Shown here: one piece after another, positions 1 to 15,431 of the stretch
How positions within the stretch are numbered: position 1 is the stretch's first letter
Layout: the number at the start of each line of letters is the position of its first letter
Virus record (IMG/VR): IMGVR_UViG_3300029504_000114
Coordinates: 1-15,718 of that record
Length of the DNA: 15,718 nucleotides
From: a virus
Taxonomy: Duplodnaviria > Heunggongvirae > Uroviricota > Caudoviricetes
Strand: one strand, 5' to 3'
Made by a program: the position numbers and the translations under genes
Notes under the pieces: model-generated
Seen by the model: only the letters and a program-made list of their open reading frames with translations
The model's database searches: none
Told to the model about the DNA's origin: nothing

Positions 1-1053
1 TTACGGGGTAATGCCAACCGCTGCCGCCACTTTGTCGCCACTTGGCAGCGTTGCCAGAGGATTGAAACGGAGCGCCGTTTCCAGATGATCCGGTGCCAGA
101 TGTGCGTAACGCATAGTCATTTTTATATCGTGGTGTCCGAGAATTTTTTGTAAGGCCAGAATGTTTCCACCCGACATCATGAAGTGCGCCGCAAACGTAT
201 GGCGCAGAACGTGTGTGAGTTGACCGCGAGGGAGCACGATAGACGTTTTTTCCATCACGGATAAAAATTGAAAATAGCAGTCTGTGAAGAAATTGAACCC
301 ATCAAGCGCCATGATCTCTTCGTAAAGCTCTTTACTGATAGGGATGCTTCTGTTTTTCTTCCCCTTCGTTCTTACAAAGGTAATTCGGTATTTGGTCACC
401 TGTGAACGAGTAAGATTTACGGCTTCTCGCCAGCGTGCGCCTGTGCTTAAGCATATCTTAACTACCAGTGCCAGAATTGGGTCCTGACGTTTGCAATCAG
501 CCAGTAATTCAACAATCTGCTCATGGGTAAGCCATGCCATCTCTTTTTCTGCGATGGTGAATTTTCGCATGTTCTCCAGTGGGTTCGGATACGACCATTC
601 GCCCAGGCGGGATAGTTCGCTAAAAACACTACTTAGATAGCTTTGCTCCAGGTTAATGGTGACCGGGCTTGCTCCTTTCTTCCATTTCTCGCTGAAGTAG
701 ATCTCACCTGTCAGGCGTTTATCTCGATAGTGGGCAAACATTTTAGAGGTTAGATCAGTTGCAAGGGGATTGCCCAGAGCGTCAACCATCAGCAGCAATT
801 TGTCATAGACATGCTGCCCAGCTGTCAGTGATTTACCATGTAGTTTGAACCATAGCTCAACCACGTCTTTCAGTGTTCGACGATCCACTGATTCTCCCAG
901 CCAGGGCTTTGCTTCGGTTTCTTCCATCGTATGGCGCTCAAAAGCCAGAGCTTCGCCTTTGGTGGCGAATTGTTTACGCACACGACGCCCACTACGTCCG
1001 GCGGGGTAACATTCGCAAAGCCATTTTCCTGTGGTGAGTTTTCGTACTGCCAT
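1..1053 (-). CDS. int: Phage tyrosine integrase (P2/186 Int-like)
   Basis: ORF 1..1131 (-); likely start is the Met of MAVRKLTTGKW at 1053, preceded by GGAGGG. C-terminal catalytic-region features (R...HxxR...Y: LRHTFAAHF..., MRYAHL). Stop TAA at 1-3. Confidence 0.9.
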   Translation of the reverse strand: MAVRKLTTGKWLCECYPAGRSGRRVRKQFATKGEALAFERHTMEETEAKPWLGESVDRRTLKDVVELWFKLHGKSLTAGQHVYDKLLLMVDALGNPLATDLTSKMFAHYRDKRLTGEIYFSEKWKKGASPVTINLEQSYLSSVFSELSRLGEWSYPNPLENMRKFTIAEKEMAWLTHEQIVELLADCKRQDPILALVVKICLSTGARWREAVNLTRSQVTKYRITFVRTKGKKNRSIPISKELYEEIMALDGFNFFTDCYFQFLSVMEKTSIVLPRGQLTHVLRHTFAAHFMMSGGNILALQKILGHHDIKMTMRYAHLAPDHLETALRFNPLATLPSGDKVAAAVGITP

Positions 1054-1239
1054 AAAAAATGCCCTCCAATAGAGAGCATTTTTACTGTATATATAACCAG
1101 TGTCAATGTATGAAATCCTGCGACCATACATCTCACTGAAGCCATAATGAAGTTGGCTATTTTTTGCTATGTGAGTATGTGACTTTTGCGGTTAGCCTGC
1201 GGCTCATTGTTATATTAGGCGCAGATATAAAAGCAAAAT

Positions 1240-1431
1240 TTATCGCGAGTTTTTAGTACAGATTTTTTTTGATTTACTAATAGTTCCATCATTGCAAACG
1301 AACTTTCCATCGGAGGTACAGTGAGAGACACCTCCCTTTTTCCCAGAACAAGGATAATTTTTAGCATAGGTAGTTAGTGGGTTTAATAACAAAGAGCATG
1401 ATAAAACCACAAAAAATACCTTACCAAGCAT
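1240..1431 (-). CDS. Small secreted cysteine-rich protein (signal peptide + ~40 aa mature part with 4 Cys), unknown function; moron candidate
   Basis: Strong RBS (GGGAGGAAA, 5 nt before ATG on minus strand); N-terminal hydrophobic signal-like stretch [23 protein letters not shown]; lies in an AT-rich segment between cI and int. Confidence 0.5.
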
Positions 1432-1446
1432 AGTTTCCTCCCGGTA

Positions 1447-2022
1447 TTACCTAACGTACTTAATTGTTAAACTTATAATTTTCCCAATTATTTCAACATC
1501 TTCTATCTTGCACTCGAAGGCTCTGTTTCCACCTTCAACGAAGATTCTTCCACCGGGTAAACGAGTAATGTCGCGGATTGTTATTTCGCCATCAATACTT
1601 ATTACCCATTTACCGTCACGTATATCATCAAATTCTTTATCACAAATAAATTCAGAATTGTTATCTGTGATGACAAAAGGTTTTTTAAACGTAGAGGGTA
1701 GAAATCCCTTATCAAAAATATAAAAACCGTCTTCACGCAAGGCACCATCAGATAATACATATTTAGCAACTTCCATAGTATTTGTATTACCTGAAGTTTG
1801 CTTTGAACCATGTCCGGTTGTGAGCCAATTAAGCGAGGTGCCCGTTTCAAGGGCGCACTGGATTACCCATTCTGCTGGGAATGAGTCACGCATGTAGCGT
1901 GTGGCGAGTGTACTTTTAGAGATTCCTAAATGATCGCACAACGCCTGTCGAGTTTTGAATCCATAAGCTTCTACCATGCGCTCTATAGCGCCTCGTCCGC
2001 CTTTCTCCAAATTCATGGTCAC
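1447..2022 (-). CDS. cI: CI-type immunity repressor (phage 186 CI-like, ~190 aa)
   Basis: 191 aa, divergent from the early operon; N-terminal HTH-like region (ERMVEAYGFKTRQALCDHLGISKSTLATRYMR) and overall resemblance to 186 CI as recalled; position between int and apl/cox. Confidence 0.8.
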   Translation of the reverse strand: MTMNLEKGGRGAIERMVEAYGFKTRQALCDHLGISKSTLATRYMRDSFPAEWVIQCALETGTSLNWLTTGHGSKQTSGNTNTMEVAKYVLSDGALREDGFYIFDKGFLPSTFKKPFVITDNNSEFICDKEFDDIRDGKWVISIDGEITIRDITRLPGGRIFVEGGNRAFECKIEDVEIIGKIISLTIKYVR

Positions 2023-2040
2023 TCCAAGTGAACTTTTATC

Positions 2041-2069
2041 TTGACGATTTCACTGTGCGATCGTATGTT
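2041..2069 (+). promoter_or_regulatory. Candidate rightward early promoter (pR-like) in the cI / apl switch region
   Basis: TTGACG (2041-2046), 17-bp spacer, TATGTT (2064-2069); inverted GTGAAC...GTTCAC motifs flank it (possible operator). Confidence 0.4.
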
Positions 2070-2141
2070 TATGGTGTTCACAAAATACAAACGATCCGTA
2101 TTCGTCCTGATTAATCATCATTAAACGAGGAATGTTGCATC

Positions 2142-2363
2142 ATGAGACCTAACATTTCAATCACTCTTACCACGCCTCATGTGACTATTGAACGCTATAG
2201 CGAGCTGACAGGGCTGTCCATCGATACCATCAATGACATGTTGGCTGACGGACGCCTTATCCGTCACCGTCTGCGCAAAGATAAAAAACGTGAAAAAGTG
2301 ATGATCAACATAGCAGCCATGACCGTTGATGCGCTTTCAGAATGCAATCTAAACCTTAATTAG
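2142..2363 (+). CDS. Apl/Cox-like small HTH protein (excisionase / early repressor)
   Basis: 73 aa, first gene of the rightward operon divergent from cI; HTH-like segment [21 protein letters not shown]; RBS GAGGA upstream. Confidence 0.6.
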
Positions 2364-2395
2364 TTCGATTCTGAAATACATCAGAGGCATTGACC

Positions 2396-2905
2396 ATGTT
2401 TGATTACCAAGTTTCCAAACATCCACATTTTGATGAAGCCTGTCGTGCATTCGCATTGCGCCACAACCTAGTGCAACTGGCAGAACGTGCAGGCATGAAT
2501 GTGCAGATTCTGCGGAACAAGCTGAACCCAGCTCAACCTCATTTATTAACCGCACCAGAAATCTGGTTGCTTACCGATCTGACTGAAGATTCAACGCTGG
2601 TAGATGGCTTTCTGGCACAGATTCACTGCCTGCCATGTGTACCGATTAATGAGGTGGCAAAAGAGAAACTGCCGCATTACGTCATGAGTGCAACTGCAGA
2701 GATAGGGCGTGTCGCGGCAGGTGCGGTTTCTGGTGATGTAAAAACCAGTGCAGGCCGTCGTGATGCGATCAGCAGCATTAACTCTGTTACACGACTGATG
2801 GCGCTGGCTGCTGTTTCATTGCAGGCCCGTTTACAGGCTAATCCTGCGATGGCGAGTGCAGTTGATACCGTGACTGGCCTCGGTGCTTCATTCGGTTTGC
2901 TGTGA
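2396..2905 (+). CDS. cII: CII-like phage regulatory protein (186 CII family)
   Basis: ORF 2390..2905; start probably MFDYQ at 2396 (RBS CAGAGG). Sequence recalled as close to 186 CII. Confidence 0.8.
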
Positions 2906-2912
2906 GGTGCTT

Positions 2913-3113
2913 ATGCTGACGAAAGAACCATCATTTGCATCGCTGCTGGTAAAACAAAGCCCGGCAATGCACTACGGTCACGGCTGGATCATGGGTGAGG
3001 ATGGTAAACGCTGGCATCCGTGCCGTTCACAAGATGAATTGCTGGCAGAACTATCTACGAAAAAACGGGGGAACAAATGGCTATTGAAGGCGCTGCGGCG
3101 ACTGTTCCATTAA
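2913..3113 (+). CDS. Hypothetical small early protein (occupies the position of 186 fil)
   Basis: ATG at 2913 preceded by GAGGTG; 66 aa; assignment is positional only. Confidence 0.4.
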   Translation: MLTKEPSFASLLVKQSPAMHYGHGWIMGEDGKRWHPCRSQDELLAELSTKKRGNKWLLKALRRLFH

Positions 3114-3418
3114 GCCCCGGTGAACGCCTGAATGGACTTAATCACATAGCGGAATTAAGGGCGAAAGTTTTTGGCCTGAATATTGAGTCAGAGCTTGAGC
3201 GGTTTATTAAAGATATGCGTGATCCACGGGATATCAATAACGAACAAAATAAACGAGCACTGGCAGCCATATTCTTTATGGCAAAAATTCCGGCTGAACG
3301 TCATAGCATCAGCATTAATGAGCTGACCACTGACGAAAAGCGGGAGTTGATTAAAGCAATGAATCATTTTCGTGCAGTGGTGAGCTTATTTCCCAGACGG
3401 CTAACCATGCCGAATTAA
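3077..3418 (+). CDS. Hypothetical early protein (occupies the position of 186 dhr)
   Basis: 113 aa ORF with GGGGGA RBS; overlaps the upstream ORF by 37 nt; no recognisable motif. Confidence 0.5.
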   Translation: MAIEGAAATVPLSPGERLNGLNHIAELRAKVFGLNIESELERFIKDMRDPRDINNEQNKRALAAIFFMAKIPAERHSISINELTTDEKRELIKAMNHFRAVVSLFPRRLTMPN

Positions 3419-3479
3419 CCAACCAATGAAATTAATGGCGTAAACCCGCCGGGCATCCCTTTATCTAAATTCAGGAGAA

Positions 3480-3719
3480 TTGATTATGCGTAATATTGAA
3501 ACCCTCTCGACCAAAACCGGACCGGATGACGCAGGGCTTAATATTTTACTGACAGAGGCTCGTCTGGAAGAACGCCGGGCAAGGGCTGAAGCAATGGCAG
3601 CTCGCCTTGATAGCCTGGCGTGTCATATCACATCCCGCCAGCTAACCCACGTCGAAGCGGCAGAACTGCTTCGTGTGACTGCTGAAGCAATCCAGAACGA
3701 AGCGCAGGAGATCCACTAA
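3480..3719 (+). CDS. Hypothetical phage protein (P2 orf80/81-like position)
   Basis: 79 aa, RBS CAGGAGA; stop overlaps the next start (TAATG). Confidence 0.5.
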   Translation: MIMRNIETLSTKTGPDDAGLNILLTEARLEERRARAEAMAARLDSLACHITSRQLTHVEAAELLRVTAEAIQNEAQEIH

Positions 3720-3946
3720 TGGCTGATGCAATGGATCTCGTACAGCAGCGCGTTGAAGAAGAACGCCAACGCCATATCCGTGCTGCCCGTGCCAAAACGC
3801 CGGGCGTGTCCCGCGTGCTTTGCATTGAGTGTGAAGCGCCAATTCCGCCAGCACGCCGCCGTGCCATTCCGGGTGTGCAGCTTTGCATTACCTGTCAGGA
3901 AATCGCAGAGCTGAAAGGCAAACATTACAACGGAGGTGCTGTATGA
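3719..3946 (+). CDS. TraR/DksA-family C4 zinc-finger protein
   Basis: 75 aa with CIEC...(17 aa)...CITC four-cysteine motif; typical phage TraR-like position upstream of the replication gene. Confidence 0.7.
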   Translation: MADAMDLVQQRVEEERQRHIRAARAKTPGVSRVLCIECEAPIPPARRRAIPGVQLCITCQEIAELKGKHYNGGAV

Positions 3947-4800
3947 GCACCATCCTGAAATGGGCGGGAAATAAAACTGCCATAATGTCCGAACTGAAAA
4001 AACATCTTCCTGCTGGCCCGCGACTGGTTGAACCTTTCGCGGGTTCCTGTGCTGTGATGATGGAGACGGATTATCCCAGCTATCTGGTTGCGGATATTAA
4101 TCCTGATTTAATCAACCTCTATAAAAAGGTTGCCGCTGATTGTGAATCGTTTATATCTCGCGCCAGAGTTTTATTTGAGATCGCAAACAGGGAGGTGGCT
4201 TATTACAACATAAGGCAGGAGTTTAATTACTCAACTGAAATTACTGATTTCATGAAAGCGGTATATTTCCTGTATCTCAATCGTCACGGTTACCGTGGTT
4301 TATGTCGCTATAACAAGAGCGGGCATTTCAACATTCCCTACGGTAATTATAAAAATCCGTATTTCCCTGAAAAAGAAATTCGCGCATTTGCAGAAAAGGC
4401 CCAGCGAGCAACGTTTATCTGCGCCAGCTTTGATGAAACGCTGGCGATGTTGAAGGCGGGGGATGTGGTGTATTGCGATCCGCCGTATGACGGTACGTTT
4501 TCCGGCTATCACACTGACGGCTTCACTGAAGATGACCAGTATCACCTGGCATCTGTTCTTGAACATCGGTCATCAGAAGGACATCCGGTCATTGTTTCTA
4601 ACAGTGACACATCCCTGATCCGTTCGCTGTATCGCAATTTTACTCACCACTACATCAAGGCAAAACGCAGCATCGGTGTGGCAGCTGGCGAGGGTAAATC
4701 AGCAACAGAAATCATTGCTGTTTCCGAGCCGCGCTGCTGGGTGGGATTTGATTATTCGCGTGGCGTGGATAGTTCTGCCGTGTACGGAGTACGTGCATGA
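3943..4800 (+). CDS. dam: DNA adenine methyltransferase (Dam-like, GATC-specific family)
   Basis: Start [11 protein letters not shown] (ATGA overlap with upstream stop); DPPY catalytic motif encoded at 4477-4488; ORF 3883..4800 trimmed to the Met with the coupled start. Confidence 0.85.
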
Positions 4801-7211
4801 GTCATGCCGATATGAACAACTGCTGCGGCTTTAACGAAGCTGCCGCATCGTTCTCATGGAACAGCCCGAAAAAGGCCATTAACCCTTATCTGGACCCGGT
4901 GGAAGTTGCGCCGGTTTCTACGCTTTCAAACCTGATCACTCTGTACGCTGCCGATAACGAGCAGGAACAGCTGCGCCGTGAGGCGCTGAGTGATCAGGTC
5001 TGGGAGCGTTATTTCTTTAATGAATCCCGTGATCCTGTCCAGCGCGAAATGGAACAGGATAAGCTCATTAGTCGGGCAAAGCTGGCGCATGAGCAGCAGC
5101 GTTTTAATCCGGATATGGTCATTCTGGCGGACGTCAACGCCCAGCCTTCCCATATCAGCAAGCCGCTGATGCAACGTATTGAATACTTCAGCAGCCTGGG
5201 CAGGCCAAAGGCTTATTCCCGCTATTTACGTGAGACGATTAAGCCATGTTTGGAACGACTGGAGCATGTACGCGACAGTCAGCTATCTGCATCTTTTCGC
5301 TTTATGGCAAGCCATGAAGGGCTGGACGGCCTGCTGATCCTGCCTGAAATGAGTCAGGATCAGGTGAAACGCCTGTCTACCTTGGTAGCTGCGCATATGA
5401 GTATGTGCCTTGATGCCGCTTGTGGCGATTTGTATGCCACCGATGACGTTAAGCCAGAAGAAATCCGCAATACATGGGAAAGGGTGGCAGCGGAAACCCT
5501 GCGTCTGGATGTCATCCCGCCTGCGTTTGAGCAACTCCGTCGGAAAAGAAACCGCCGTAAACCCGTGCCCTATGAACTCATTCCGGGTTCGCTGGCGCGT
5601 ATGTTGTGCGCCGACTGGTGGTATCGGAAATTATGGAAGATGCGTTGCGAATGGCGGGAAGAGCAGTTGCGTGCAGTCTGCCTTGTCAGCAAAAAAGCAT
5701 CTCCTTATGTCAGCTATGAAGCCGTGATGCATAAACGTGAGCAGCGCCGTAAGTCGCTGGAGTTTTTCCGTTCTCATGAGCTGGTGAACGAAGACGGCGA
5801 CACGCTGGACATGGAGGATGTGGTAAACGCCAGCAGCAGCAACCCAGCGCATCGCCGCAATGAGATGATGGCCTGTGTTAAAGGTCTGGAGCTTATCGCG
5901 GAAATGCGCGGTGACTGCGCCGTTTTCTACACCATCACCTGTCCGTCACGTTTCCATTCCACGCTAAATAACGGCAGGCCCAACCCAACCTGGACAAATG
6001 CGACGGTAAGACAAAGCAGTGATTATCTGGTCGGCATGTTTGCTGCATTTCGTAAGGCGATGCACAAAGCCGGATTGCGGTGGTATGGCGTGCGGGTGGC
6101 TGAGCCGCATCATGACGGTACAGTTCACTGGCACCTGTTGTGTTTTATGCGCAAAAAAGACCGCCGCACCATCACTGCATTACTGCGTAAGTTTGCCATC
6201 CGTGAAGACCGCGAGGAGCTGGGCAATAACACTGGGCCGCGCTTTAAGTCTGAGTTGATTAACCCGCGCAAAGGTACGCCAACAAGCTACATCGCGAAAT
6301 ACATCAGTAAGAACATTGACGGGCGTGGTCTGGCTGGCGAGATCAGCAAGGAAACGGGGAAATCCCTGCGTGATAATGCTGAATACGTTAATGCCTGGGC
6401 GTCTCTGCATCGTGTTCAGCAATTCCGCTTCTTTGGCATTCCGGGGCGTCAGGCTTACCGTGAACTGCGATTGCTGGCTGGTCAGGCGGCAAGGCAACAG
6501 GGGGACAAAAAAGCAGGTGCGCCGGTACTGGATAACCCGCGCCTTGATGCCATTCTGGCTGCTGCTGATGCTGGTTGTTTTGCCACCTACATCATGAAGC
6601 AGGGTGGCGTACTGGTTCCCCGCAAATATCACCTCATCAGAACTGCTTATGAAATCAACGAAGAGCCGACCGCCTATGGCGATCACGGCATTCGTATTTA
6701 TGGCATCTGGTCACCTATTGCAGAGGGCAAGATCTGCACTCATGCCGTGAAGTGGAAAATGGTTCGTAAGGCCGTTGACGTTCAGGAGGCGGCAGCCGAC
6801 CAGGGCGCTTGCGCCCCTTGGACTCGTGGCAATAACTGTCCCCTTGCTGAAAATTTGAACCAACAAGGGAAAGACAAATCAGCTGATGGGGATACCAGAA
6901 CGGACATTACCCGCATGGATGACAAGGAGTTGCACGATTACCTGCACAGTATGAGCAAAAAAGAGCGCCGGGAACTGGCTGCAAGGTTACGCCTGGTGAA
7001 ACCGAAACGGCGTAAAGACTACAAACAGCGAATTACAGACCATCAGCGACAGCAGCTTGTCTATGAGCTGAAGTCCAGAGGATTTGATGGTAGCGAGAAA
7101 GAGGTCGATTTACTCCTTCGCGGCGGCAGTATTCCGTCAGGAGCAGGCCTGCGTATCTTCTATCGGAACCAGCGTTTGCAGGAAGATGATAAGTGGCGGG
7201 ATCTGTATTAA
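4797..7211 (+). CDS. A: Replication initiation protein A (P2 gpA-type rolling-circle endonuclease)
   Basis: 804 aa; motifs [15 protein letters not shown] and [12 protein letters not shown] characteristic of P2/186 gpA; ATGA overlap with dam. Confidence 0.9.
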
Positions 7212-7302
7212 TTACGCGGGTTAACAATTCGTGCTCTTAATAATACCAGGCATATCAGGCTGATGAACGTAAAAAACGTTTTACATCAGTAAGATTATTA
7301 TA

Positions 7303-7322
7303 TACTGTAAATATAAACAGTG
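7303..7322. promoter_or_regulatory. LexA (SOS) box
   Basis: TACTGTAAATATAAACAGTG: CTGT-N8-ACAG at 7305-7320, ~45 bp upstream of the 62-aa ORF; an adjacent partial site ATGTATACAGTA lies at 7326-7337. Confidence 0.6.
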
Positions 7323-7362
7323 GATATGTATACAGTATTGCTTTGGTGTCATAGGAGGAAAG

Positions 7363-7551
7363 ATGCAGGACTATTTTTTGGAGTCTTTGAAGCTCCAGCG
7401 CATTGATTTTTTTCTTAAGCTTGTGGCGGCTAGTGAGTGTAGTGATGAAGAGAAGGGGCTGGCTCTGCAGTGGGTTTCTGAATTGACTGATGAACTCATG
7501 GCAAAAATCAGAACCCACGAATACAACCGCTCAATGGATGTCATCAGCTGA
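7363..7551 (+). CDS. Small protein, possible N-terminal part of a split Tum-like antirepressor
   Basis: 62 aa with strong RBS AGGAGG; directly downstream of the LexA box and upstream of the DinI-like ORF. Confidence 0.45.
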   Translation: MQDYFLESLKLQRIDFFLKLVAASECSDEEKGLALQWVSELTDELMAKIRTHEYNRSMDVIS

Positions 7552-7561
7552 GGTGACTTTT

Positions 7562-7795
7562 ATGCGCATTGAAATAATGATCGATAAAGAGCAGAAGATT
7601 AGCCAGTCTACCCTGGACGCCCTTGAATCCGAGCTTTACCGCAATCTGCGCCCCCTGTATCCCAAAACGGTAATTCGCATTCGCAAAGGTAGCTCTAACG
7701 GGGTGGAACTAACCGGACTGCAACTGGACGAAGAAAGAAAACAAGTGATGAAAATTATGCAGAAGGTGTGGGAAGACGACAGCTGGCTGCATTAA
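7562..7795 (+). CDS. DinI-like protein (Tum C-terminal domain-like)
   Basis: Start MRIEIMIDKEQ at 7562 with RBS GAGGTG; 77 aa; DinI-family pattern (MRIE... near N-terminus, ...WEDDSWLH at C-terminus). Confidence 0.75.
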   Translation: MRIEIMIDKEQKISQSTLDALESELYRNLRPLYPKTVIRIRKGSSNGVELTGLQLDEERKQVMKIMQKVWEDDSWLH

Positions 7796-7930
7796 GAAAC
7801 GTTGCTGGCGTCTGAACTTGCTTCTGGCGTCAGCAAGGTTGAACAACGAGCCCTTGCGAGGCGTTAGCTCTGTAGTGCATGTCTATGCCGCATGAGATCG
7901 CATGATCGTTTGAGGATCGTTTTTGCTAAG

Positions 7931-7954
7931 GCCCGCCAGAACTGGCGGGCTTTT
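7931..7954 (+). terminator. Rho-independent terminator after the tum/dinI-like operon
   Basis: GCCCGCCAG / CTGGCGGGC perfect 9-bp stem followed by TTTTG. Confidence 0.6.
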
Positions 7955-8026
7955 GCGTAGATCATGCAGGTGCATGAAAACCACTACATAAAGCGGGCAG
8001 GCGTGGCGGGGATACGAGCGCGCGCC

Positions 8027-8055
8027 TTGCCTTATATCTATTTGTTCATTAAAAT
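8027..8055 (+). promoter_or_regulatory. Candidate promoter for the retron ncRNA/RT operon
   Basis: TTGCCT (8027-8032), 17-bp spacer, TAAAAT (8050-8055); predicted start near 8062. Confidence 0.3.
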
Positions 8056-8061
8056 CATTAT

Positions 8062-8218
8062 GCTCTTTAGTGTAGGAACATTGGTTCCAGCCGGGTGATT
8101 AGCCAGGCTTAAATTTATTGTCCGGTTTAGGGTTGCGAAAGACACAGATTTCTCCTTCGCATCCCTGCCCGGGGCAGATATGCGAAGGAGAAATCTGTGT
8201 CTTTCGCTGTCTTTAGTG
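8062..8218 (+). ncRNA. Candidate retron msr-msd non-coding RNA (exact ends and a1/a2 unresolved)
   Basis: Non-coding segment directly upstream of the retron-type RT; small stem-loop GGAAC-ATTG-GTTCC (8075-8088) then a 73-nt near-perfect hairpin (8135-8207); bounded by a 9-bp direct repeat TCTTTAGTG (8064-8072 and 8210-8218). Confidence 0.55.
8135..8207. repeat. Long near-perfect inverted repeat / hairpin (candidate msd stem-loop of msDNA)
   Basis: GCGAAAGACACAGATTTCTCCTTCGCAT (8135-8162) is the exact reverse complement of 8180-8207; the centre CTGCCC-G-GGGCAG is itself palindromic. Confidence 0.9.
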
Positions 8219-8273
8219 AAGAGTCAAAGCGCTATGTAAAGTTGCATAGCGCTTTGGTTTTAAGAGGGGTTAT

Positions 8274-9209
8274 ATGCAACTAACTTCTAAAATTATCAGT
8301 AAGTTTAATTATAATAGATTAGCTTTCCAATTACTTTTAAATGAGGCCCCCAAAAAATATAAAGTTTATTATATTCCTAAACGTGGCGCAGGTTTTCGGG
8401 TGATAGCTCAGCCGACAAAGGAACTAAAAAACGTACAGAGATTTATAGTATCTTTGCTACAGCCAAAGCTGCCTGTTCATCATAAGGCAATGGCATATGA
8501 ATATAAAAAAAGTATTAAAGATAATGCATTGTTGCATAAAGATAATAATTATATTCTTAAAATGGATTTTCAGAACTTCTTTAACAAAATTAAACCTGAT
8601 ATATTTTTCTCGAAACTTGAGAACACAGGGCTGAAATTGGATTCATTTGATGAGAACACCCTACGTAATTTGCTTTTTTGGCGTCCGGGAAAAAAGAGAA
8701 GTACAACGTTGATATTAAGTGTAGGGGCGCCAAGCTCACCATTTATTAGTAATTTTGTTATGTATGACTTTGACAAGAGTCTTGATGATTGGTGCCGTAA
8801 CAATGGTATCACTTATTCAAGGTATGCAGATGATATAACTTTTTCAACTAATATTAAGGATATATTGTGCAGGGTTCCTAAGGTGGTAAAAAAAATGTTG
8901 TCGCTCCATGTTCCCGGTCTATCAATCAATGAATCTAAAACAATTTTTACATCGATGGCTCATAATCGGCACGTGACTGGTGTAACACTTACACCTCAGG
9001 GCAATTTATCAATTGGTCGCGATCGTAAAAGGATGCTGTTTGCAAAGATTCATAAATATTCTTTGGGACTCTTATCTTCCGAAGAAATAAATAAAACCAA
9101 AGGGATGATTGCGTTTGCAAATTATTTGGAGGGTGATTTTTTATTAAGGTTACAAAAAAAATATGGTTGTGAGTTAATAACTAAGTTCCTGATGGAAGGA
9201 AACAAATAA
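8274..9209 (+). CDS. Retron-type reverse transcriptase
   Basis: 311 aa; RT motifs YYIPKRGAGFRVI, LKMDFQNFF, VGAPSSP, YSRYADDITFS (YADD at 8823-8834) and the retron-typical NRHVTGV (VTG) motif; RBS AAGAGGGG. Confidence 0.9.
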   Translation: MQLTSKIISKFNYNRLAFQLLLNEAPKKYKVYYIPKRGAGFRVIAQPTKELKNVQRFIVSLLQPKLPVHHKAMAYEYKKSIKDNALLHKDNNYILKMDFQNFFNKIKPDIFFSKLENTGLKLDSFDENTLRNLLFWRPGKKRSTTLILSVGAPSSPFISNFVMYDFDKSLDDWCRNNGITYSRYADDITFSTNIKDILCRVPKVVKKMLSLHVPGLSINESKTIFTSMAHNRHVTGVTLTPQGNLSIGRDRKRMLFAKIHKYSLGLLSSEEINKTKGMIAFANYLEGDFLLRLQKKYGCELITKFLMEGNK

Positions 9210-10843
9210 TGATAAATAAAATGAATTTAGAGACTTGCTATGTTGATTTTTTAGAGTTGGAATCACATGTGATAAACGAGGATTATTTGAAGGAGTCTGT
9301 TGAGCTTCAAAAGCTAATATCTACTTTAAATGAGAGTAAGTTTCATTTAAATAAAATAGGTATACATGATTTTAAACGGATAAGAGAACTACAGATTTCT
9401 TTAGAAGATGATTTGACTGTTTTTGTCGGGGATAACGGATTCGGTAAAAGCACTATTTTGGATGCAATAGCAATTGTTTTGAGTTGGTTGAGATCAAATA
9501 TTGAAAAGGAGAGTAAGCCTGGTACTTATATTAAAAGCCATGAAGTTAATAACTCTGTTGATGTTGAGTATGCATCAATTGATGCAAATATAAAACTCAA
9601 GGACTTTAATACCAGTATTTTGATTACTAAAGCGAAAGAGGGGGCATATTATTCTAGAAATAATGAATTGTTGGAGGTAAAAAAACTTGCAAGTATTTAT
9701 AGACTTGTGAATAAATATGTTGATAATGCAAGCTTGCCTTTGATGGCATATTATTCTATTGCGCGTTCTTATATAGGCGGTGGGGTTGATAGGAAAAGAA
9801 AAAATGCTAAAACTAAAACTGTATGGTCAAAATTCGATGTGTATGATGAAATCGAGTTTGACAGAAATGATTTTACCGATTTTTTTCAATGGCTTGTATT
9901 TCTTCATAACAGAGCTTCACAAGAGAAATTGAGTGAGTCACAAACGACAATCAATGCGTTATTTTCAGATATTCAGAGTTTGAAAGCAACATTAACTCAA
10001 CTATCTGCGATTGATAATATTGATTCAACAGTTATAAAAGGTTTAGAGCTTTCGCTTAAAGAAAAATTGAACTACATGAAATCTCTGCAATCAGGAGAAC
10101 ATAAGTTTAATAATGCAGTATCACTTTATGATAGTGTTATAAATACCATTCTAAAGTTCTTGCCTGAATTTCAGTGGATTAAGCTTGTTTATGGTGATGA
10201 TGATTATAAGATTATCCTTAAAAAAGGAGAGGTTGAATTAGATATTCAACAGTTGTCTCAAGGTGAGAAAACTATATTTACTTTAGTTGGTGATTTGGCT
10301 CGACGTTTAATTTTACTTAATCCTAATTTATCTAATCCTCTATTGGGATATGGGATTGTTTTAATTGATGAAATTGATTTGCATTTGCATCCGCAATGGC
10401 AACAGACAATTATTGAGCGTTTGACATCTACATTCCCAAATGTTCAATTTGTAATTACTACCCATAGCCCACAGGTTTTATCCACTGTTAGCTCTCGTTC
10501 AGTGCGTATTCTACAGGAAGTGGAAGTAGATGGTGTTAATGATTTGATAGTGTCTCACCCCGACTATCAAATAAAAGGTGTTAGTAATCAGGATGCACTT
10601 TTATATGGAATGAGAACTGATCCTATACCCTCTACTAAAGAAAATGGTTGGCTTGAAGAATATAAAAAATTGGTTGAGCTTAATCGTTATAGCAGTGACG
10701 AGGCTCTTTTGTTAAGAGAAAAAGTTATTAAACATTTCGGATTAGACCATCCTTTAGTTCAAGAGTGTGATGATCTTATATCTGTTTTGGAGTTCAAAAA
10801 TAAGATAAATCAGCACTTTTCTGGAAGTAAGGATGTAAAATGA
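9209..10843 (+). CDS. ABC/SMC-type ATPase (PtuA-like retron effector ATPase)
   Basis: 544 aa; Walker A GDNGFGKST (9428-9454), signature-like LSQGEK, Walker B VLIDEIDLHLH, H-loop-like ITTHSP; start overlaps the RT stop (TAATG). Confidence 0.85.
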   Translation: MINKMNLETCYVDFLELESHVINEDYLKESVELQKLISTLNESKFHLNKIGIHDFKRIRELQISLEDDLTVFVGDNGFGKSTILDAIAIVLSWLRSNIEKESKPGTYIKSHEVNNSVDVEYASIDANIKLKDFNTSILITKAKEGAYYSRNNELLEVKKLASIYRLVNKYVDNASLPLMAYYSIARSYIGGGVDRKRKNAKTKTVWSKFDVYDEIEFDRNDFTDFFQWLVFLHNRASQEKLSESQTTINALFSDIQSLKATLTQLSAIDNIDSTVIKGLELSLKEKLNYMKSLQSGEHKFNNAVSLYDSVINTILKFLPEFQWIKLVYGDDDYKIILKKGEVELDIQQLSQGEKTIFTLVGDLARRLILLNPNLSNPLLGYGIVLIDEIDLHLHPQWQQTIIERLTSTFPNVQFVITTHSPQVLSTVSSRSVRILQEVEVDGVNDLIVSHPDYQIKGVSNQDALLYGMRTDPIPSTKENGWLEEYKKLVELNRYSSDEALLLREKVIKHFGLDHPLVQECDDLISVLEFKNKINQHFSGSKDVK

Positions 10844-11523
10844 AATATCTATCTAGGCAAATGCCAGGGCCTTCCGTTCTTAATAAATTTGACTATAGGA
10901 GGGATGATTGGAATTCCCTATCATCAAATGATAAAAAAGAAATATGGGAAGAAATAATAAAAATGCAAGGTAAATTATGTGCTTATTGCGAGAAAAAAAT
11001 AGAGCATCATAAAAGTGGTGGCAAAAATAAAGTTGAGAGGCATATTGAGCATTTTTACAGGAAAAGTTATTACAAAAATTTAACTTTCGAGTGGTCTAAT
11101 TTGTTTGGCTCATGTGGTGAGCCGCAAAGGTGTGGGTTTTATAAGGATAAGCAAAAATATAACGATGATGATTTAATTAAAGCTGATAGACAAAATCCAG
11201 ATGTTTTTTTCCATTTTTTGGAAAATGGTGATGTTCATATTAGAGAAGGCTTGAATGAGAAAGAACACAAAATGGCAGAGGTTACGTTAAGAGTATTTAA
11301 CTTAAACCCGTCCTCAGGAGGAGTCAAGGCGGAAAGAAGACGTGCAATAGAATTAAGCATGACATTAATAAAGGAACTGGTCGGATGTGCATCTCAGCTT
11401 ATTGAATCAGGATGTGAAATTGAAGATGTTAGATCTATGGTCTTTGATGAGTTTAAAAAGAATGTAAAAGATAGATGCTTTACCACTGCGATAAAGCATG
11501 TTTTTGAGAATAGAATGCCTTAA
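10840..11523 (+). CDS. HNH endonuclease (PtuB-like retron effector nuclease)
   Basis: 227 aa; CAYC...HHKSGGKNKVERHIEHF...NL...SCGEPQRC HNH/zinc-finger pattern; ATGA overlap with the ATPase stop indicates translational coupling. Confidence 0.85.
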   Translation: MKYLSRQMPGPSVLNKFDYRRDDWNSLSSNDKKEIWEEIIKMQGKLCAYCEKKIEHHKSGGKNKVERHIEHFYRKSYYKNLTFEWSNLFGSCGEPQRCGFYKDKQKYNDDDLIKADRQNPDVFFHFLENGDVHIREGLNEKEHKMAEVTLRVFNLNPSSGGVKAERRRAIELSMTLIKELVGCASQLIESGCEIEDVRSMVFDEFKKNVKDRCFTTAIKHVFENRMP

Positions 11524-11546
11524 AGGTTAGAGGGATGTATATATAA

Positions 11547-12160
11547 TTAATCTATATTATATTCTGAGAAATTGATAATATGCATCCCTATCCACTGATT
11601 AAATTCATGGATTTTTTTTTGTAGAGGTACTAATTCATTTGTCACAAAAACCTTACTAGCTTTCTCCACATCCCCAAAACCCCCAACATTATTAGGCATT
11701 ATCCCCATCATCTGTGGCGGAACGCGATGTGCTGCCATCATGTCATCGCGGCTGACATTTTTGATATTCAGAAACTCATCCTTCGCCGCAACTTCTGACA
11801 AAGGGATGATCTGAAGGCCGTCCTTTTTGCCATTAGGCGAGTACATAAACAGGTTGCGGAAGTTGCCTGGACCTTTGGCGCTTTTCATCGCGTTGCGGAG
11901 ATTGTTCACATCCTCCTGATTCTGCGCGGCGTCGGTCATGTACATGATGAAGCCTGCATGGCTGCCGTTGATGTAATACTTACGGCGGAACAGCGTGGCA
12001 GACTCGTTGAGCAGGGCGGATGGAATGGCAGAAAGATAGCCTGGCAGGCCGTAGATCTCCTGGTTGATGTCCGGTTCCATCAGATGAAAAATGCTGCCTT
12101 TCGTGAACTGATACGGCTGGGTTGTCATACCGTATTGCACAAACCAGTAGGTACCCGCGA
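11547..12160 (-). pseudogene. Portal protein (P2 gpQ-like) fragment lacking its N-terminal part; 3' end possibly altered by the cargo junction
   Basis: Portal-like sequence from MTTQPYQFTKG onward (ATG at 12126-12128) toward lower coordinates; the upstream part of ORF 11547..12347 is antisense to the D' fragment and not portal-like. Junction coordinate approximate. Confidence 0.6.
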
Positions 12161-12554
12161 ACCTGCGAAGAAAGAAAGCACCACGGTGAAGCGTAAGCGC
12201 AGAACTAAGAAGCAGAAGAAAGAGCCAGAAGCGAAGCAGGGCGATTACCTGGTGGGTACGGATGAAAACGTGCTGGTACTTAATCGCACTTATGCCAACC
12301 GGAGCAACGCCGAACGAGCGGCGAAAATGCAGTGGGAACGCCTGCAACGCGGCGTTGCGTCATTCTCGCTACAACTGGCAGAAGGGCGGGCAGATCTCTA
12401 CACGGAAATGCCAGTGAAAGTCAGTGGCTTTAAACAGCCGATAGATGATGCGGAATGGACCATTACGACTCTGACGCATACCATCAGCCCGGATAACGGT
12501 TTTACGACCAGTCTGGAGCTTGAAGTGAGGATTGATGATTTCGAAATGGAATGA
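12160..12554 (+). pseudogene. Tail protein D (P2 gpD-like) C-terminal fragment
   Basis: C-terminal ~130 aa of ORF 11958..12554 (...LNRTYANRSNAERAAKMQWERLQRGV...FTTSLELEVRIDDFEME) resembles gpD C-terminus as recalled; N-terminal 65 aa of the ORF is antisense to the portal fragment. Junction approximate. Confidence 0.55.
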
Positions 12555-12644
12555 TTCTTCGCAATGGAGAACTTTTAAGTTTGCAAAATGGAATAATGCG
12601 GTATCATTATTGTGAATTTAGCAAAAATGGGGAGAACTCGAAAA

Positions 12645-12863
12645 ATGATGATTTGCCCACTGTGTGGAAGTGCCGCCCATACTCGCAGCAGTTTTCAGGT
12701 ATCTTCATTGACCAAAGAGCGTTACAACCAGTGCCAGAACATTAACTGCAGCCATACTTTTGTTACCCATGAAACTTTTGTTCGTTCGATTGCAACGCCA
12801 AAAGAGTCAAATCCGGTTCAGCCGCATCCAATGAAATCAGGACAGGTGGCGCTCTCTCTTTGA
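12645..12863 (+). CDS. ogr: Ogr/Delta-family zinc-finger late transcription activator
   Basis: Start MMICPLCGSAAHTRSS (ATG 12645, RBS GGGGAGA); CPLC...(Ogr-type) ...CQNINCSHTF zinc-finger pattern; ~72 aa. Confidence 0.8.
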   Translation: MMICPLCGSAAHTRSSFQVSSLTKERYNQCQNINCSHTFVTHETFVRSIATPKESNPVQPHPMKSGQVALSL

Positions 12864-12943
12864 CGCTGCCGCCATTTTGTCGCCATCGTTAAAAAACAGT
12901 GTTTCTAACATCATGATTTTAAACAGCTTAAATTTCAGGCAAC

Positions 12944-12986
12944 AAAAAACCCATCAACCTTGAACCGAAATGGCGGGGTTGATGGG
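12944..12986 (-). terminator. Rho-independent terminator on the minus strand downstream of ybjL
   Basis: CCCATCAACC (12950-12959) / GGTTGATGGG (12977-12986) 10-bp stem; on the minus strand it is followed by a T6 run (plus-strand A6 at 12944-12949). Confidence 0.5.
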
Positions 12987-13098
12987 CTCCACAAAATGGG
13001 GACATCAAAGAAAAGCAGTGGCACTAATTAAGACTGATGCCCTGCGGAAAAGTTCTGCGGTTGTGCAAAAAAATTTCATTTTCAGGGCAACTTCAGTT

Positions 13099-14784
13099 TT
13101 ATCCTAATCCTGGCCATACCATGACGATGATTGTCCCTGCCAGCGTCAGCAGGACGTTGGCGATTGCATAGGTGCCCGCATAGCCCAGCGCCGGGATGTT
13201 ACTGCGAGCTGTATCACTGATGATCTCCATTGCCGGCGCGCAGGTACGTGCGCCCATCATTGCGCCGAACAACAGCGCGCGGTTCATTCGCAATACATAA
13301 GCACCGAACAAGAAACAGATAACCACGGGCACCAGACTGACAATCAATCCGGCAATCAACATCTGACCGCCAATCGCGCCCAGGCCGTTATTAATACCGC
13401 TACCGGCGCTCAGACCAACGCCTGCCATAAACACCATCAAGCCGAACTCTTTCACCATGCTTAATGCACCCTGCGGAATGTAACCGAAGGTCGGGTGGTT
13501 AGCACGCATAAAGCCCAGCATAATTCCGGCGAATAACAACCCGGCAGCGTTCCCCATGCCGAAACTGAATGTGCTGAACTGGAAGGTGATCATCCCGATC
13601 ATCAGCCCAATAACAAAGAAGGCGCAGAATGCCAGCAGGTCAGTGACCTGGCTGTGAATCGAGATAAAGCCGATGCGATCGGCGATGGTTTTTACGCGGC
13701 GGGCATCGCCGCTGACTTGTAAAACGTCACCTTTGTTAAGCACGACGTTGTCATCTATCGGCATCTCAATCTGGCTACGAATGACGCGGTTAAGGAAGCA
13801 ACCGTGATCGGTCAACTTCAGTTGTGCGAGACGTTTACCTACAGCGTTATGGTTTTTAACGACCACTTCTTCAGTGACGATACGCATGTCGAGAAGGTCA
13901 CGATCGAAAACTTCTTTACCGTTACGGAAGCTGGGATCGAGTCGGGCATGGGCGTCGGGATAGCCTACCAACGCTATTTCATCGCCCATTTGTAGCACGG
14001 CATCACCGTCTGGATTTGCCAGAATCCCGTTACGTCGAATACGTTCAATGTAGCAGCCGGTTTGTCGATAAATACCCAGTTCACGCAGATTTTTGCCGTC
14101 GGTCCAGGCCACCAGTTCCGGGCCGACGCGATAGGCGCGGATCACCGGTAAATAAACCTTACGGTTGGCATCAGTGTCCAGGCCACGTTCGCGGGCGATT
14201 TGCTGGGCGCTGGTCTGTAAGTCCTGATGCTGCAATTTCGGCAAGTAACGCGCACCAACAATCAAACTCACCAGACCGATTAAATAGGTTAAGGCATACC
14301 CGAGGCTCAGATTATCCAGTGCCAGTGAGAGCTGCCTGCTTTCCATGCCGGAATGACGCAGTGTATCGCCAGCACCGACCAGAACCGGTGTCGACGTCAT
14401 AGAGCCTGCTAACATACCGGCCGTCAGGCCAATATCCCAGCCAAACAGCTTACCTAACCCTAAGGCGATCACCAGCGCACTGCCAACCATCACCAGTGCT
14501 AACATTAGGTAATTTTTCCCATCGCGAAAAAAAATGGAAAAAAAGTTCGGTCCGGCTTCGACCCCGACGCAGAAAATAAACAGCATAAAGCCAAGATTAA
14601 GCGCATCGGTGTTAATGCTGAAATGTTGTTGGCCTAATAACAGCGATACGACTAAAACGCCAATGGAATTACCCAGTTGGATCGAACCAAGTCGTAACTT
14701 TCCGAGACATAGCCCAAGCGCGAGGACCACAAATAATAACAGAATGTAATTCCCATTTAACAATTCGGCGACGTTTATATTCAC
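13099..14784 (-). CDS. ybjL: Putative transporter YbjL (AAE family, with two RCK/TrkA-C-like domains)
   Basis: 561 aa; starts [24 protein letters not shown] and matches E. coli YbjL as recalled; host gene. Confidence 0.9.
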
Positions 14785-15053
14785 GGAGGCTAACTTCTTG
14801 TTTACTAGTAAGCTGTTGAAAGAAATGGTAATTTACGATAATGTTTTTTACCAGAATTCAGGGCGCAGATTCATTCAGCGCACCTAAACGATAGTAAAGT
14901 AACAATATATTTTACTAGTGTAATCACATTAGGTATCAACGGCTATATGAATTGCGTTGGCCTATATTAGCATGGAATGCGAAGCGGCTTTATCTTACTG
15001 AACGCCACACTGGCGAAAAATGTGTTCGATAGACGCAGTGTCAGGAGGAACGA

Positions 15054-15431
15054 GTGAAACATAAACAACGTTGGGCGGGGGCAATCTGCTGTTTTGTCCT
15101 CTTCATTGTGGTGTGCCTTTTTCTGGCGACGCACATGAAAGGCGCTTTTCGGGCTGCCGGGCATCCTGAAATCGGCTTGCTATTTTTCATTCTTCCTGGA
15201 GCAGTCGCCAGCTTCTTTTCACAGCGTAGAGAAGTCCTGAAACCTCTGTTTGGCGCAATGCTGGCGGCACCCTGTTCGATGCTCATTATGCGGCTGTTTT
15301 TTTCACCGACGCGCTCATTCTGGCAAGAGCTGGCATGGTTACTAAGCGCGGTGTTCTGGTGTGCGCTGGGGGCACTGTGTTTCTTATTTATCAGTAGTTT
15401 GTTTAAACCACAGCACAGAAAAAATCAGTAA
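15054..15431 (+). CDS. ybjM: Inner membrane protein YbjM
   Basis: 125 aa hydrophobic protein, GTG start with RBS CAGGAGG; matches E. coli YbjM as recalled. Confidence 0.8.
   Translation: MKHKQRWAGAICCFVLFIVVCLFLATHMKGAFRAAGHPEIGLLFFILPGAVASFFSQRREVLKPLFGAMLAAPCSMLIMRLFFSPTRSFWQELAWLLSAVFWCALGALCFLFISSLFKPQHRKNQ

Follow-up and report, generated by a model that had tools for sequence, protein, structure and literature searches.

Three uninterrupted open reading frames follow one another on the plus strand of the 15,718-nucleotide stretch of DNA analysed here (the window), and encode a reverse transcriptase (RT), an ATPase and a nuclease of HNH type, Table 1. At the RT/ATPase junction, AAATAATGATA, one base is common to the TAA stop and the ATG start, and at the ATPase/HNH junction, AAAATGAAA, an ATGA provides an overlap of 4 bases; these overlaps imply that the genes are co-translated. 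The GC content across the three frames is 31-35%. A sequence-only reading had described three coupled genes at 8274-11523, and its coordinates proved exact, with all the motifs and overlaps that it quoted present; the combined pattern of motifs, reading frames and profile matches lies far beyond chance. As the extent of the system, that interval is correct for the genes but too short, since the promoter-like site and the non-coding RNA (ncRNA) upstream (~8027-8256) were left outside it.

Table 1 Features of the retron locus. Positions are nucleotides of the window, except for protein motifs, which are given in residues of the protein concerned
Feature	Position	Strand	Details and basis
Whole retron cargo cassette	8026..11586	+	Lacking in strain VE-V11-M's P2-like prophage, which is homologous elsewhere
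Sigma-70-like promoter match (candidate)	8027..8055	+	TTGCCT, 17-nt spacer, TAAAAT; 9/12 consensus matches; consensus scan
Retron ncRNA, msr then msd	8063..8224 (approx.)	+	Rfam matches, fold, FORC 82 identity
a1 inverted repeat, GCTCTTTA	8062..8069	+	Pairs with a2; MFE fold and two-sequence consensus fold
Predicted branching (priming) guanosine	8070	+	Unpaired, directly 3' of a1, UUAGU context
Two msr stem-loops	8075-8088 and 8089-8109	+	MFE and consensus folds
Long msd hairpin, predicted template of the msDNA 'harpoon'	8135..8207	+	28 bp lower stem and apical stem
a2 inverted repeat, TGAAGAGT	8217..8224	+	Pairs with a1; MFE fold and two-sequence consensus fold
Extra hairpin, then GGTTTT	8225..8256	+	14-15 bp; follows the ncRNA and precedes the ribosome-binding site of the RT
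RT gene	8274-9209	+	311 aa; ORF list
ATPase gene	9209-10843	+	544 aa; ORF list
HNH gene	10840-11523	+	227 aa; ORF list
RT motifs	84-88, 184-187, 234-236		NAXXH (NALLH), YADD, VTG
ATPase motifs	74-82, 349-353, 385-394, 417-421, 454		Walker A GDNGFGKST, ABC signature LSQGE, Walker B LIDEIDLHLH (D387), H-loop TTHSP, Q454
HNH motifs	47, 68-71		CAYCE, HIEH (catalytic H71)

The identity of the three proteins was established from profile and structure matches. For the RT, the best PADLOC model was RT_I-A (E 4.9e-131) and the Pfam family was RVT_1 (E 3.7e-30); the top PDB matches were all retron RTs, with group II intron RTs appearing only at E ~1e-9 or weaker, and the protein is 100% identical to PDB 9n69_E and to FORC_082 WP_032289563.1. 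The second protein matched the PADLOC models PtuA (1.7e-193) and ATPase_I-A (1.2e-151) as well as the Pfam families AAA_15, AAA_21 and SMC_N, and is, as judged from these matches, a PtuA-type ABC/SMC-family ATPase. It agrees with 9n69_A at 543 of 544 residues, the sole difference being G156E, and strain 98208 has the identical allele. The HNH protein, for which no Pfam family was found at E 0.01 or better, was identified through PADLOC (PtuB 1.5e-117, HNH_I-A 3.7e-57) and through the PDB, where it is 100% identical to 9n69_F. The residues mutated in PMC12475279 (ATPase D387, Q454 and V73; HNH H71 and G44) carry the same numbers here. An RT with YADD, NAXXH and VTG, an adjacent PtuA-like ATPase and a PtuB-like HNH in third place together constitute, by protein sequence, a retron of type I-A in the classification of Mestre et al. 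(2020, PMC7736814). The RT plus Septu-like (PtuA/PtuB-type) architecture read from the raw sequence is thus supported, with RT_I-A, ATPase_I-A/PtuA and HNH_I-A/PtuB as the best PADLOC models, and the profile search that the same reading had proposed as a check places the RT with retron models.

The arrangement directly upstream of the RT is likewise that of a type I-A retron, with an msr-msd region closed by a1 and a2 and an unpaired G8070. The Rfam msr model matches 8062-8126 (45.9 bits, E 1.7e-05; under the gathering score of 52) and STnc400, an msd-type model, matches 8128-8265 (73 bits, E 1e-12; under the gathering score of 80), while matches to the Rfam families mir-2068 and UCA1 were set aside as chance. 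The fold of the ncRNA has a z-score of -11.2, and the segment 8040-8273 shows zero mismatches to FORC 82. The ends given in Table 1 derive from the fold and from published numbering: the 5' end was chosen such that the branching guanosine becomes G8 of PMC12475279, which names the priming site as A7 and G8, and the 3' end is that of the a2 repeat. The context of G8070 aligns to the UUAGC consensus of the Rfam msr, whose conserved stem is matched by the second of the two stem-loops. In the msd hairpin, the inverted repeat has 36-nt arms that are 94% complementary, and relative to the retron of strain N10 it carries three compensatory double changes.

The promoter-like site is placed such that transcription would begin at ~8062-8063, where the ncRNA has its 5' end. 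Sigma-70-like matches are overall rarer in this region than in shuffled sequence, and we consider the site a plausible candidate, called by consensus match; the FORC 82 construct is described in PMC12475279 as functional from native promoters within ~550 bp upstream. The extra hairpin falls inside the STnc400 model, and strain N10 has a hairpin of different sequence at the equivalent position. A run of only 4 T after this hairpin kept the terminator scan from calling it. One could speculate that, as a partial terminator or a site of processing, it governs how much ncRNA there is relative to RT and effector, and that G156E in addition shifts the ease of triggering, although we regard this combination as unlikely.

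Since the PtuA and PtuB models rank top for genes 2 and 3, and the effector module, an ABC/SMC ATPase that holds the HNH in its C-terminal claw, is homologous to stand-alone Septu (PtuA/PtuB, PDB 8EE4 / 8EEA), with claw and HNH structurally close to it, the locus could in principle be a DNA-degrading Septu system that happens to adjoin an unrelated RT, from a group II intron, a DGR or a DRT. Septu itself, however, lacks RT, ncRNA and msDNA, its HNH has been reported to act as a DNase, and its sequence match to the present proteins is weak (PtuB E 4.6e-05). Here, retron models give the RT its best scores, the RT overlaps the start codon of the ATPase in a manner that implies co-translation, and the msr-msd ncRNA lies immediately before it. 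In the published FORC 82 work, RT, msDNA, ATPase and HNH co-purify and DNA degradation was not seen (PMC12475279). We therefore reject a stand-alone Septu beside an unrelated RT, to which we attach next to no probability.

Among known systems, the closest is the type I-A retron of E. coli FORC 82, the strain from which this retron was first characterised. Comparing 8040-11530 of the window with the FORC_082 chromosome, 3489 of 3491 nucleotides match; the two loci share gene order and overlaps and have identical ncRNA, RT and HNH, and of the two bases that differ, one is a synonymous change in the RT gene and the other produces E156 in place of G156 in the ATPase. The sequence leaves us highly confident that the locus is an intact type I-A retron of the FORC 82 type, and thus one that is already known. 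Other relatives are more distant. In Ec83 (PDB 9E8Z) and in the PDB 22ET retron, a retron RT was solved with a PtuA-type ATPase, with PtuB chains listed for 22ET, but the Ec83 RT reaches 269 bits against 698 for 9N69 and the 22ET RT is ~48% identical. A second type I-A retron, found in E. coli N10 and 23CRST038, has an ncRNA region ~84% identical in both strains, and in N10 it sits at this very P2 hotspot with its genes in the same order, with the msd hairpin preserved by its compensatory changes, whereas the N10 proteins are only 55-60% identical.

The reading from raw sequence had suspected an Ec78-type element, which holds for the type and not for Ec78 itself. Ec78 (Retron-Eco7; type I-A; PDB 9L7P, 9KJX, 9VHE; Azam et al. 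2024, PMC11555353) has the same parts, ncRNA, RT, PtuA and PtuB, the same PADLOC type and the same logic, in which msDNA restrains PtuAB, phage nucleases are the trigger and tRNA cleavage is the output. Its chains are moreover the next-best PDB matches behind 9N69 and 22ET, and the RefSeq name of the HNH is 'retron Ec78 anti-phage system effector HNH endonuclease PtuB'. Ec78 acts on tRNA-Tyr, and T5 evades it by means of tRNA-Tyr plus ORF75; if the locus were Ec78 itself, it would cleave tRNA-Tyr and be countered by the tRNA-Tyr and Rad/ORF75 of T5. Yet near-identity to the Ec78 proteins is not what we find: the RT is ~50% and the HNH ~44% identical, and the ATPase match has 258 bits, compared with 1190 bits for 9N69. 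The FORC 82 HNH, identical to the one encoded here, depletes tRNA-Ser, and neither the T5 tRNAs nor ORF75 overcome it (PMC12475279). On these grounds of identity, score and target we reject Ec78 itself as extremely improbable.

For the FORC 82 retron, both the structure and the mechanism have been described (George et al., Nat Commun 2025, PMC12475279; PDB 9N69, 9N6B, 9N6C). This retron protects against T3 and T5, and the protection is abolished by ATPase D387A or HNH H71A. Its RT and ncRNA, identical to those encoded here, were found by experiment to yield an msDNA of ~90 nt, which in the cryo-EM complex acts as a scaffold for four ATPases, a single RT and a single HNH. The msDNA is degraded by nucleases of T3, T5 and T7, among them phage flap nucleases, and the HNH then cleaves tRNA-Ser, which becomes depleted, and arrests translation. 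The notion that an RT-msDNA complex restrains the ATPase-nuclease until infection, put forward from the raw sequence, has thus been shown experimentally for an operon virtually identical to the present one.

By analogy with that near-identical operon, we infer the following course for the present copy. A promoter just upstream would give rise to a transcript of the msr-msd ncRNA and the three genes, and the RT, priming at the 2'-OH of branching G8070, would copy the msd hairpin into msDNA of ~90 nt. This msDNA would thread two homodimers of the PtuA-type ATPase, joined by one RT and one HNH (PtuB), in a complex of ~364 kDa that would keep the nuclease harmless. Upon infection, phage flap or 5'-3' exonucleases (T3 exonuclease, T5 D15) would degrade the msDNA, and the HNH would then cleave tRNA-Ser, leading to a stop in translation and arrest of phage replication (growth arrest or abortive infection). 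The step in which loss of msDNA would release or activate the HNH is a presumed one. The output of the effector would accordingly be cleavage of tRNA-Ser, rather than DNA degradation as in Septu or cleavage of tRNA-Tyr as in Ec78. Nothing in the sequence argues against an explanation of the FORC 82 type.

The retron lies between a DinI-like gene and the portal gene of a P2-like prophage whose insertion site is the 3' end of rybB, the same position as in the P2-like prophage of FORC 82. The two backbones are 98.2% identical, with heavier deletions in the present one, which is without nearly all structural genes and has a deletion junction at ~12152/12153. In a blastn comparison of the window, homology with the prophage of strain VE-V11-M ends at 8025 and restarts at 11587, and GC drops to 31-35% along the intervening cassette (~33% overall). 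The cassette is cargo in the variable hotspot of a decayed P2-like prophage. Given the loss of structural genes, and given that G156E adds a negative charge close to residues that bind msDNA (position 156, G in the characterised ATPase, is four residues from the msDNA-contacting N151/N152), one could imagine a silent relic, disabled by the substitution or by lost regulation.

Several observations speak against such a relic. Over 3.5 kb there are 2 substitutions, and the three reading frames, the ncRNA and the promoter-like region have all stayed intact. Strain 98208 carries E156 as well, and there the annotated head, lysis and early tail genes of the prophage are intact in the ~9 kb covered on each side of the retron. 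In PMC12475279, single alanine substitutions at msDNA-contact residues of FORC 82 leave defence unaffected, YADD mutants of the RT are toxic, and inactivation of the RT or the scaffold is toxic when the effector remains active. Since an unrestrained effector is toxic there and the effector is intact here, a working antitoxin arm is implied. We thus reject an inactivated relic as very unlikely, and retain an intact retron of the FORC 82 type.

This type of retron is rare: among 5426 complete genomes of E. coli, 4 carry it. A megablast of 8040-11530 against the phage collection gave no match, which indicates that the element is not in a deposited phage genome at ~85% identity or more. Because the structure has been solved and the triggers and target already identified, the biological addition made here is small. 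The analysis does illustrate that a reading of raw sequence alone can recognise a real defence system, and it places another natural copy of a rare retron on record. It also reveals this retron to be exchangeable cargo at the P2-like prophage hotspot, kept even once the structural genes were lost.

The retron is a system already known in detail, with atomic structures solved for proteins identical to its own. Its RT and HNH proteins are 100% identical to PDB chains 9n69_E and 9n69_F over all 311 and all 227 residues, respectively, and residues 2-544 of the ATPase are identical to 9n69_A save for residue 156 (E in the window, G in the chain). The system studied in the paper on this structure is the type I-A retron of E. 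coli FORC 82 (George et al., Nat Commun 2025, PMC12475279). By megablast with window 8040-11530, the cassette was found in only four of 5426 complete E. coli genomes, including FORC_082, which matches at 99.9% identity. A base-by-base comparison with the FORC_082 chromosome gave 2 differences in 3491 nt, of which the one at 8915 is synonymous, in the RT gene, and the one at 9675 causes ATPase G156E, the sole amino-acid difference from the FORC 82 system; the 234 nt upstream of the RT carry none. The ATPase allele of strain 98208 equals that of the window, E156 included. Residue 156 lies four residues past N151/N152, which contact the msDNA. Since the residues that the authors mutated (ATPase V73, D387 and Q454; HNH G44 and H71) carry the same numbers in the window, the gene starts are the same as in FORC 82.

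The sequence-only reading had suspected an Ec78-type element. This holds for the retron type, which Ec78 (Retron-Eco7) shares, but we rejected identity as Ec78 itself, with RT and HNH identities of about 50% and 44%; Ec78 PtuA matches the window ATPase with 258 bits, compared with 1190 bits for the 9N69 ATPase. Several further Ec78/Eco7 structures have been published. As described in PMC12475279, Ec78 depletes tRNA-Tyr whereas the FORC 82 retron targets tRNA-Ser, and evasion via T5 tRNA-Tyr and ORF75 works against Ec78 but not against the FORC 82 retron.

The initial observation of an RT joined to a Septu-like PtuA/PtuB pair is confirmed, and its interpretation supported. All three plus-strand ORFs were recovered at exactly the coordinates proposed, with both quoted overlaps read at their junctions: TAATG between RT and ATPase, where stop and start have one base in common, and ATGA between ATPase and HNH, where they overlap by four. 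Every motif quoted was located in the translations, which by residue contain NAXXH (NALLH, 84-88; a second retron-specific motif alongside VTG), YADD (184) and VTG (234) in the RT, GDNGFGKST (74), LSQGE (349), LIDEIDLHLH (385) and TTHSP (417) in the ATPase, and CAYCE (47) and HIEH (68-71) in the HNH protein. The top PADLOC models were RT_I-A (4.9e-131) for the RT, PtuA (1.7e-193; ATPase_I-A 1.2e-151) for the ATPase and PtuB (1.5e-117; HNH_I-A 3.7e-57) for the HNH protein. Pfam assigned RVT_1 to the RT and AAA_15, AAA_21 and SMC_N to the ATPase, and the Pfam search found no family for the HNH protein.

The operon as first delimited held the three genes correctly and omitted the retron ncRNA, which lies upstream of them. 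Window 8055-8272 folds with -108.6 kcal/mol (z-score -11.2). Strain N10 carries a related type I-A retron whose ncRNA shares about 84% identity with that of the window, and three double compensatory changes in its msd stem support the msd hairpin. The priming guanosine is numbered G8, preceded by A7 (PMC12475279), which places the ncRNA 5' end at 8063, and the promoter-like match has the right spacing for an RNA start there. The template from the a2 side to the msr end, which we infer to be about 90 nt long, agrees with the msDNA size observed experimentally for FORC 82, likewise about 90 nt (PMC12475279). The hairpin following the a2 repeat is included in the Rfam STnc400 model, has a counterpart of different sequence at the equivalent place in N10 (about 5190-5216 of the N10 comparison stretch, L004), and may serve as a partial terminator or else in processing or stability. 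The RefSeq RT of N10 (L004 5187-6170) is annotated as 327 aa, starting inside this hairpin; because translation from an ATG at about 5233 yields the MQL N-terminus seen in the window RT, the true start probably lies some 15 codons downstream of the annotated one.

Features of the window around and within the retron
Feature	Position	Strand	Basis or remark
Prophage backbone	1-8025 and 11587-12940		
Dam methylase	3883-4800		
Replication endonuclease (gpA-like)	4797-7211		
DinI-like gene	about 7562-7795		
Two GC-rich inverted repeats	7798-7840 and 7925-7956		after DinI-like gene
Promoter-like match	8027-8055	+	TTGCCT, 17-nt spacer, TAAAAT; consensus match only
msr (Rfam)	8062-8126	+	45.9 bits, E 1.7e-05; slightly under gathering score
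a1/a2 stem	8062-8069 with 8217-8224	+	fold and two-sequence consensus fold
Unpaired G	8070	+	directly after a1; same folds
Two msr stem-loops	8075-8109	+	same folds
STnc400, msd-type model (Rfam)	8128-8265	+	73 bits, E 1e-12; slightly under gathering score
Long msd hairpin	8135-8207	+	folds; independently, inverted-repeat search
Hairpin, 14-15 bp	8225-8256		CAAAGCGCTATGTAA / TTGCATAGCGCTTTG then GGTTTT; between a2 repeat and RT ribosome-binding site
Retron RT	8274-9209	+	311 aa ORF
PtuA-type ATPase	9209-10843	+	544 aa ORF
PtuB-type HNH nuclease	10840-11523	+	227 aa ORF
Deletion junction	about 12152/12153		portal 3' part (-) joined to late-control D 3' part (+)
RybB sRNA gene	12941-13019	-	105 bits, over gathering score

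The window contains the remains of a P2-like prophage between rcdA and rybB/ybjL, which starts with integrase, CI repressor, early genes, Dam methylase and replication endonuclease and ends with the DinI-like gene, the retron, the fused portal and late-control D remnants, and ogr; the long ORFs at 11547-12347 (-) and 11958-12554 (+) are chimeric remnants. It appears to have integrated at the rybB 3' end, since the last 14 nt of RybB (AACAAAAAACCCAT, window 12941-12954) recur by rcdA at the other prophage end (413-426 of L002, the VE-V11-M stretch), where about 1.5e-4 chance 14-mer matches are expected between the two compared stretches. GC content is 31-35% over the retron genes, against about 45-55% in the flanks, and the cargo limits were set at 8026-11586 by alignment to VE-V11-M, which has the same backbone. 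Ahead of it, the repeat at 7925-7956 (GCTAAGGCCCGCCAG / CTGGCGGGCTTTTGC) resembles an intrinsic terminator closing the prophage early operon before the cassette. The content of this slot, which follows the DinI-like gene and precedes the portal gene, differs between strains: a TIGR02391-family gene in VE-V11-M (L002 8854-10005) and, in N10 (L004 5187-8457), a distinct type I-A retron with proteins 55-60% identical to those of the window. FORC_082 has a TIR-domain gene slightly further on, past the portal gene (14267-15067 of its stretch, L001). Strain 98208 carries this same retron within a P2-like prophage that has another integrase and whose head, lysis and early tail genes are annotated intact (roughly 9 kb each side of the retron). 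Lying between replication genes and portal gene, the retron slot is presumably the equivalent of tin/old in P2, a region known in P2-like phages as a hotspot for defence genes.

The mechanism has been shown for the FORC 82 retron, and we infer it for the window copy. The FORC 82 operon is reported to protect MG1655 from T3 and T5 but not T4 or T7, and ATPase D387A or HNH H71A abolishes defence (PMC12475279). Because RT active-site mutants could be cloned only with the effector also mutated, RT and msDNA form an antitoxin arm, in line with the restraint of the effector first proposed. By cryo-EM, the head of the complex consists of RT and part of the ncRNA, a harpoon-like msDNA threads two ATPase homodimers, and a claw of ATPase C-terminal helices holds one HNH (PMC12475279). 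According to the same source, the msDNA is degraded by T3 exonuclease, the site of T3 escape mutations, and by the flap nucleases of T5 and T7, all of which bring about a growth arrest that depends on the HNH; activation depletes all four tRNA-Ser species, T5 tRNA-Ser being likewise cleaved, without DNA degradation. In the window copy, RT and msDNA would likewise keep the effector in check until phage nucleases degrade the msDNA, whereupon the active HNH would deplete tRNA-Ser and arrest growth, leaving DNA undegraded.
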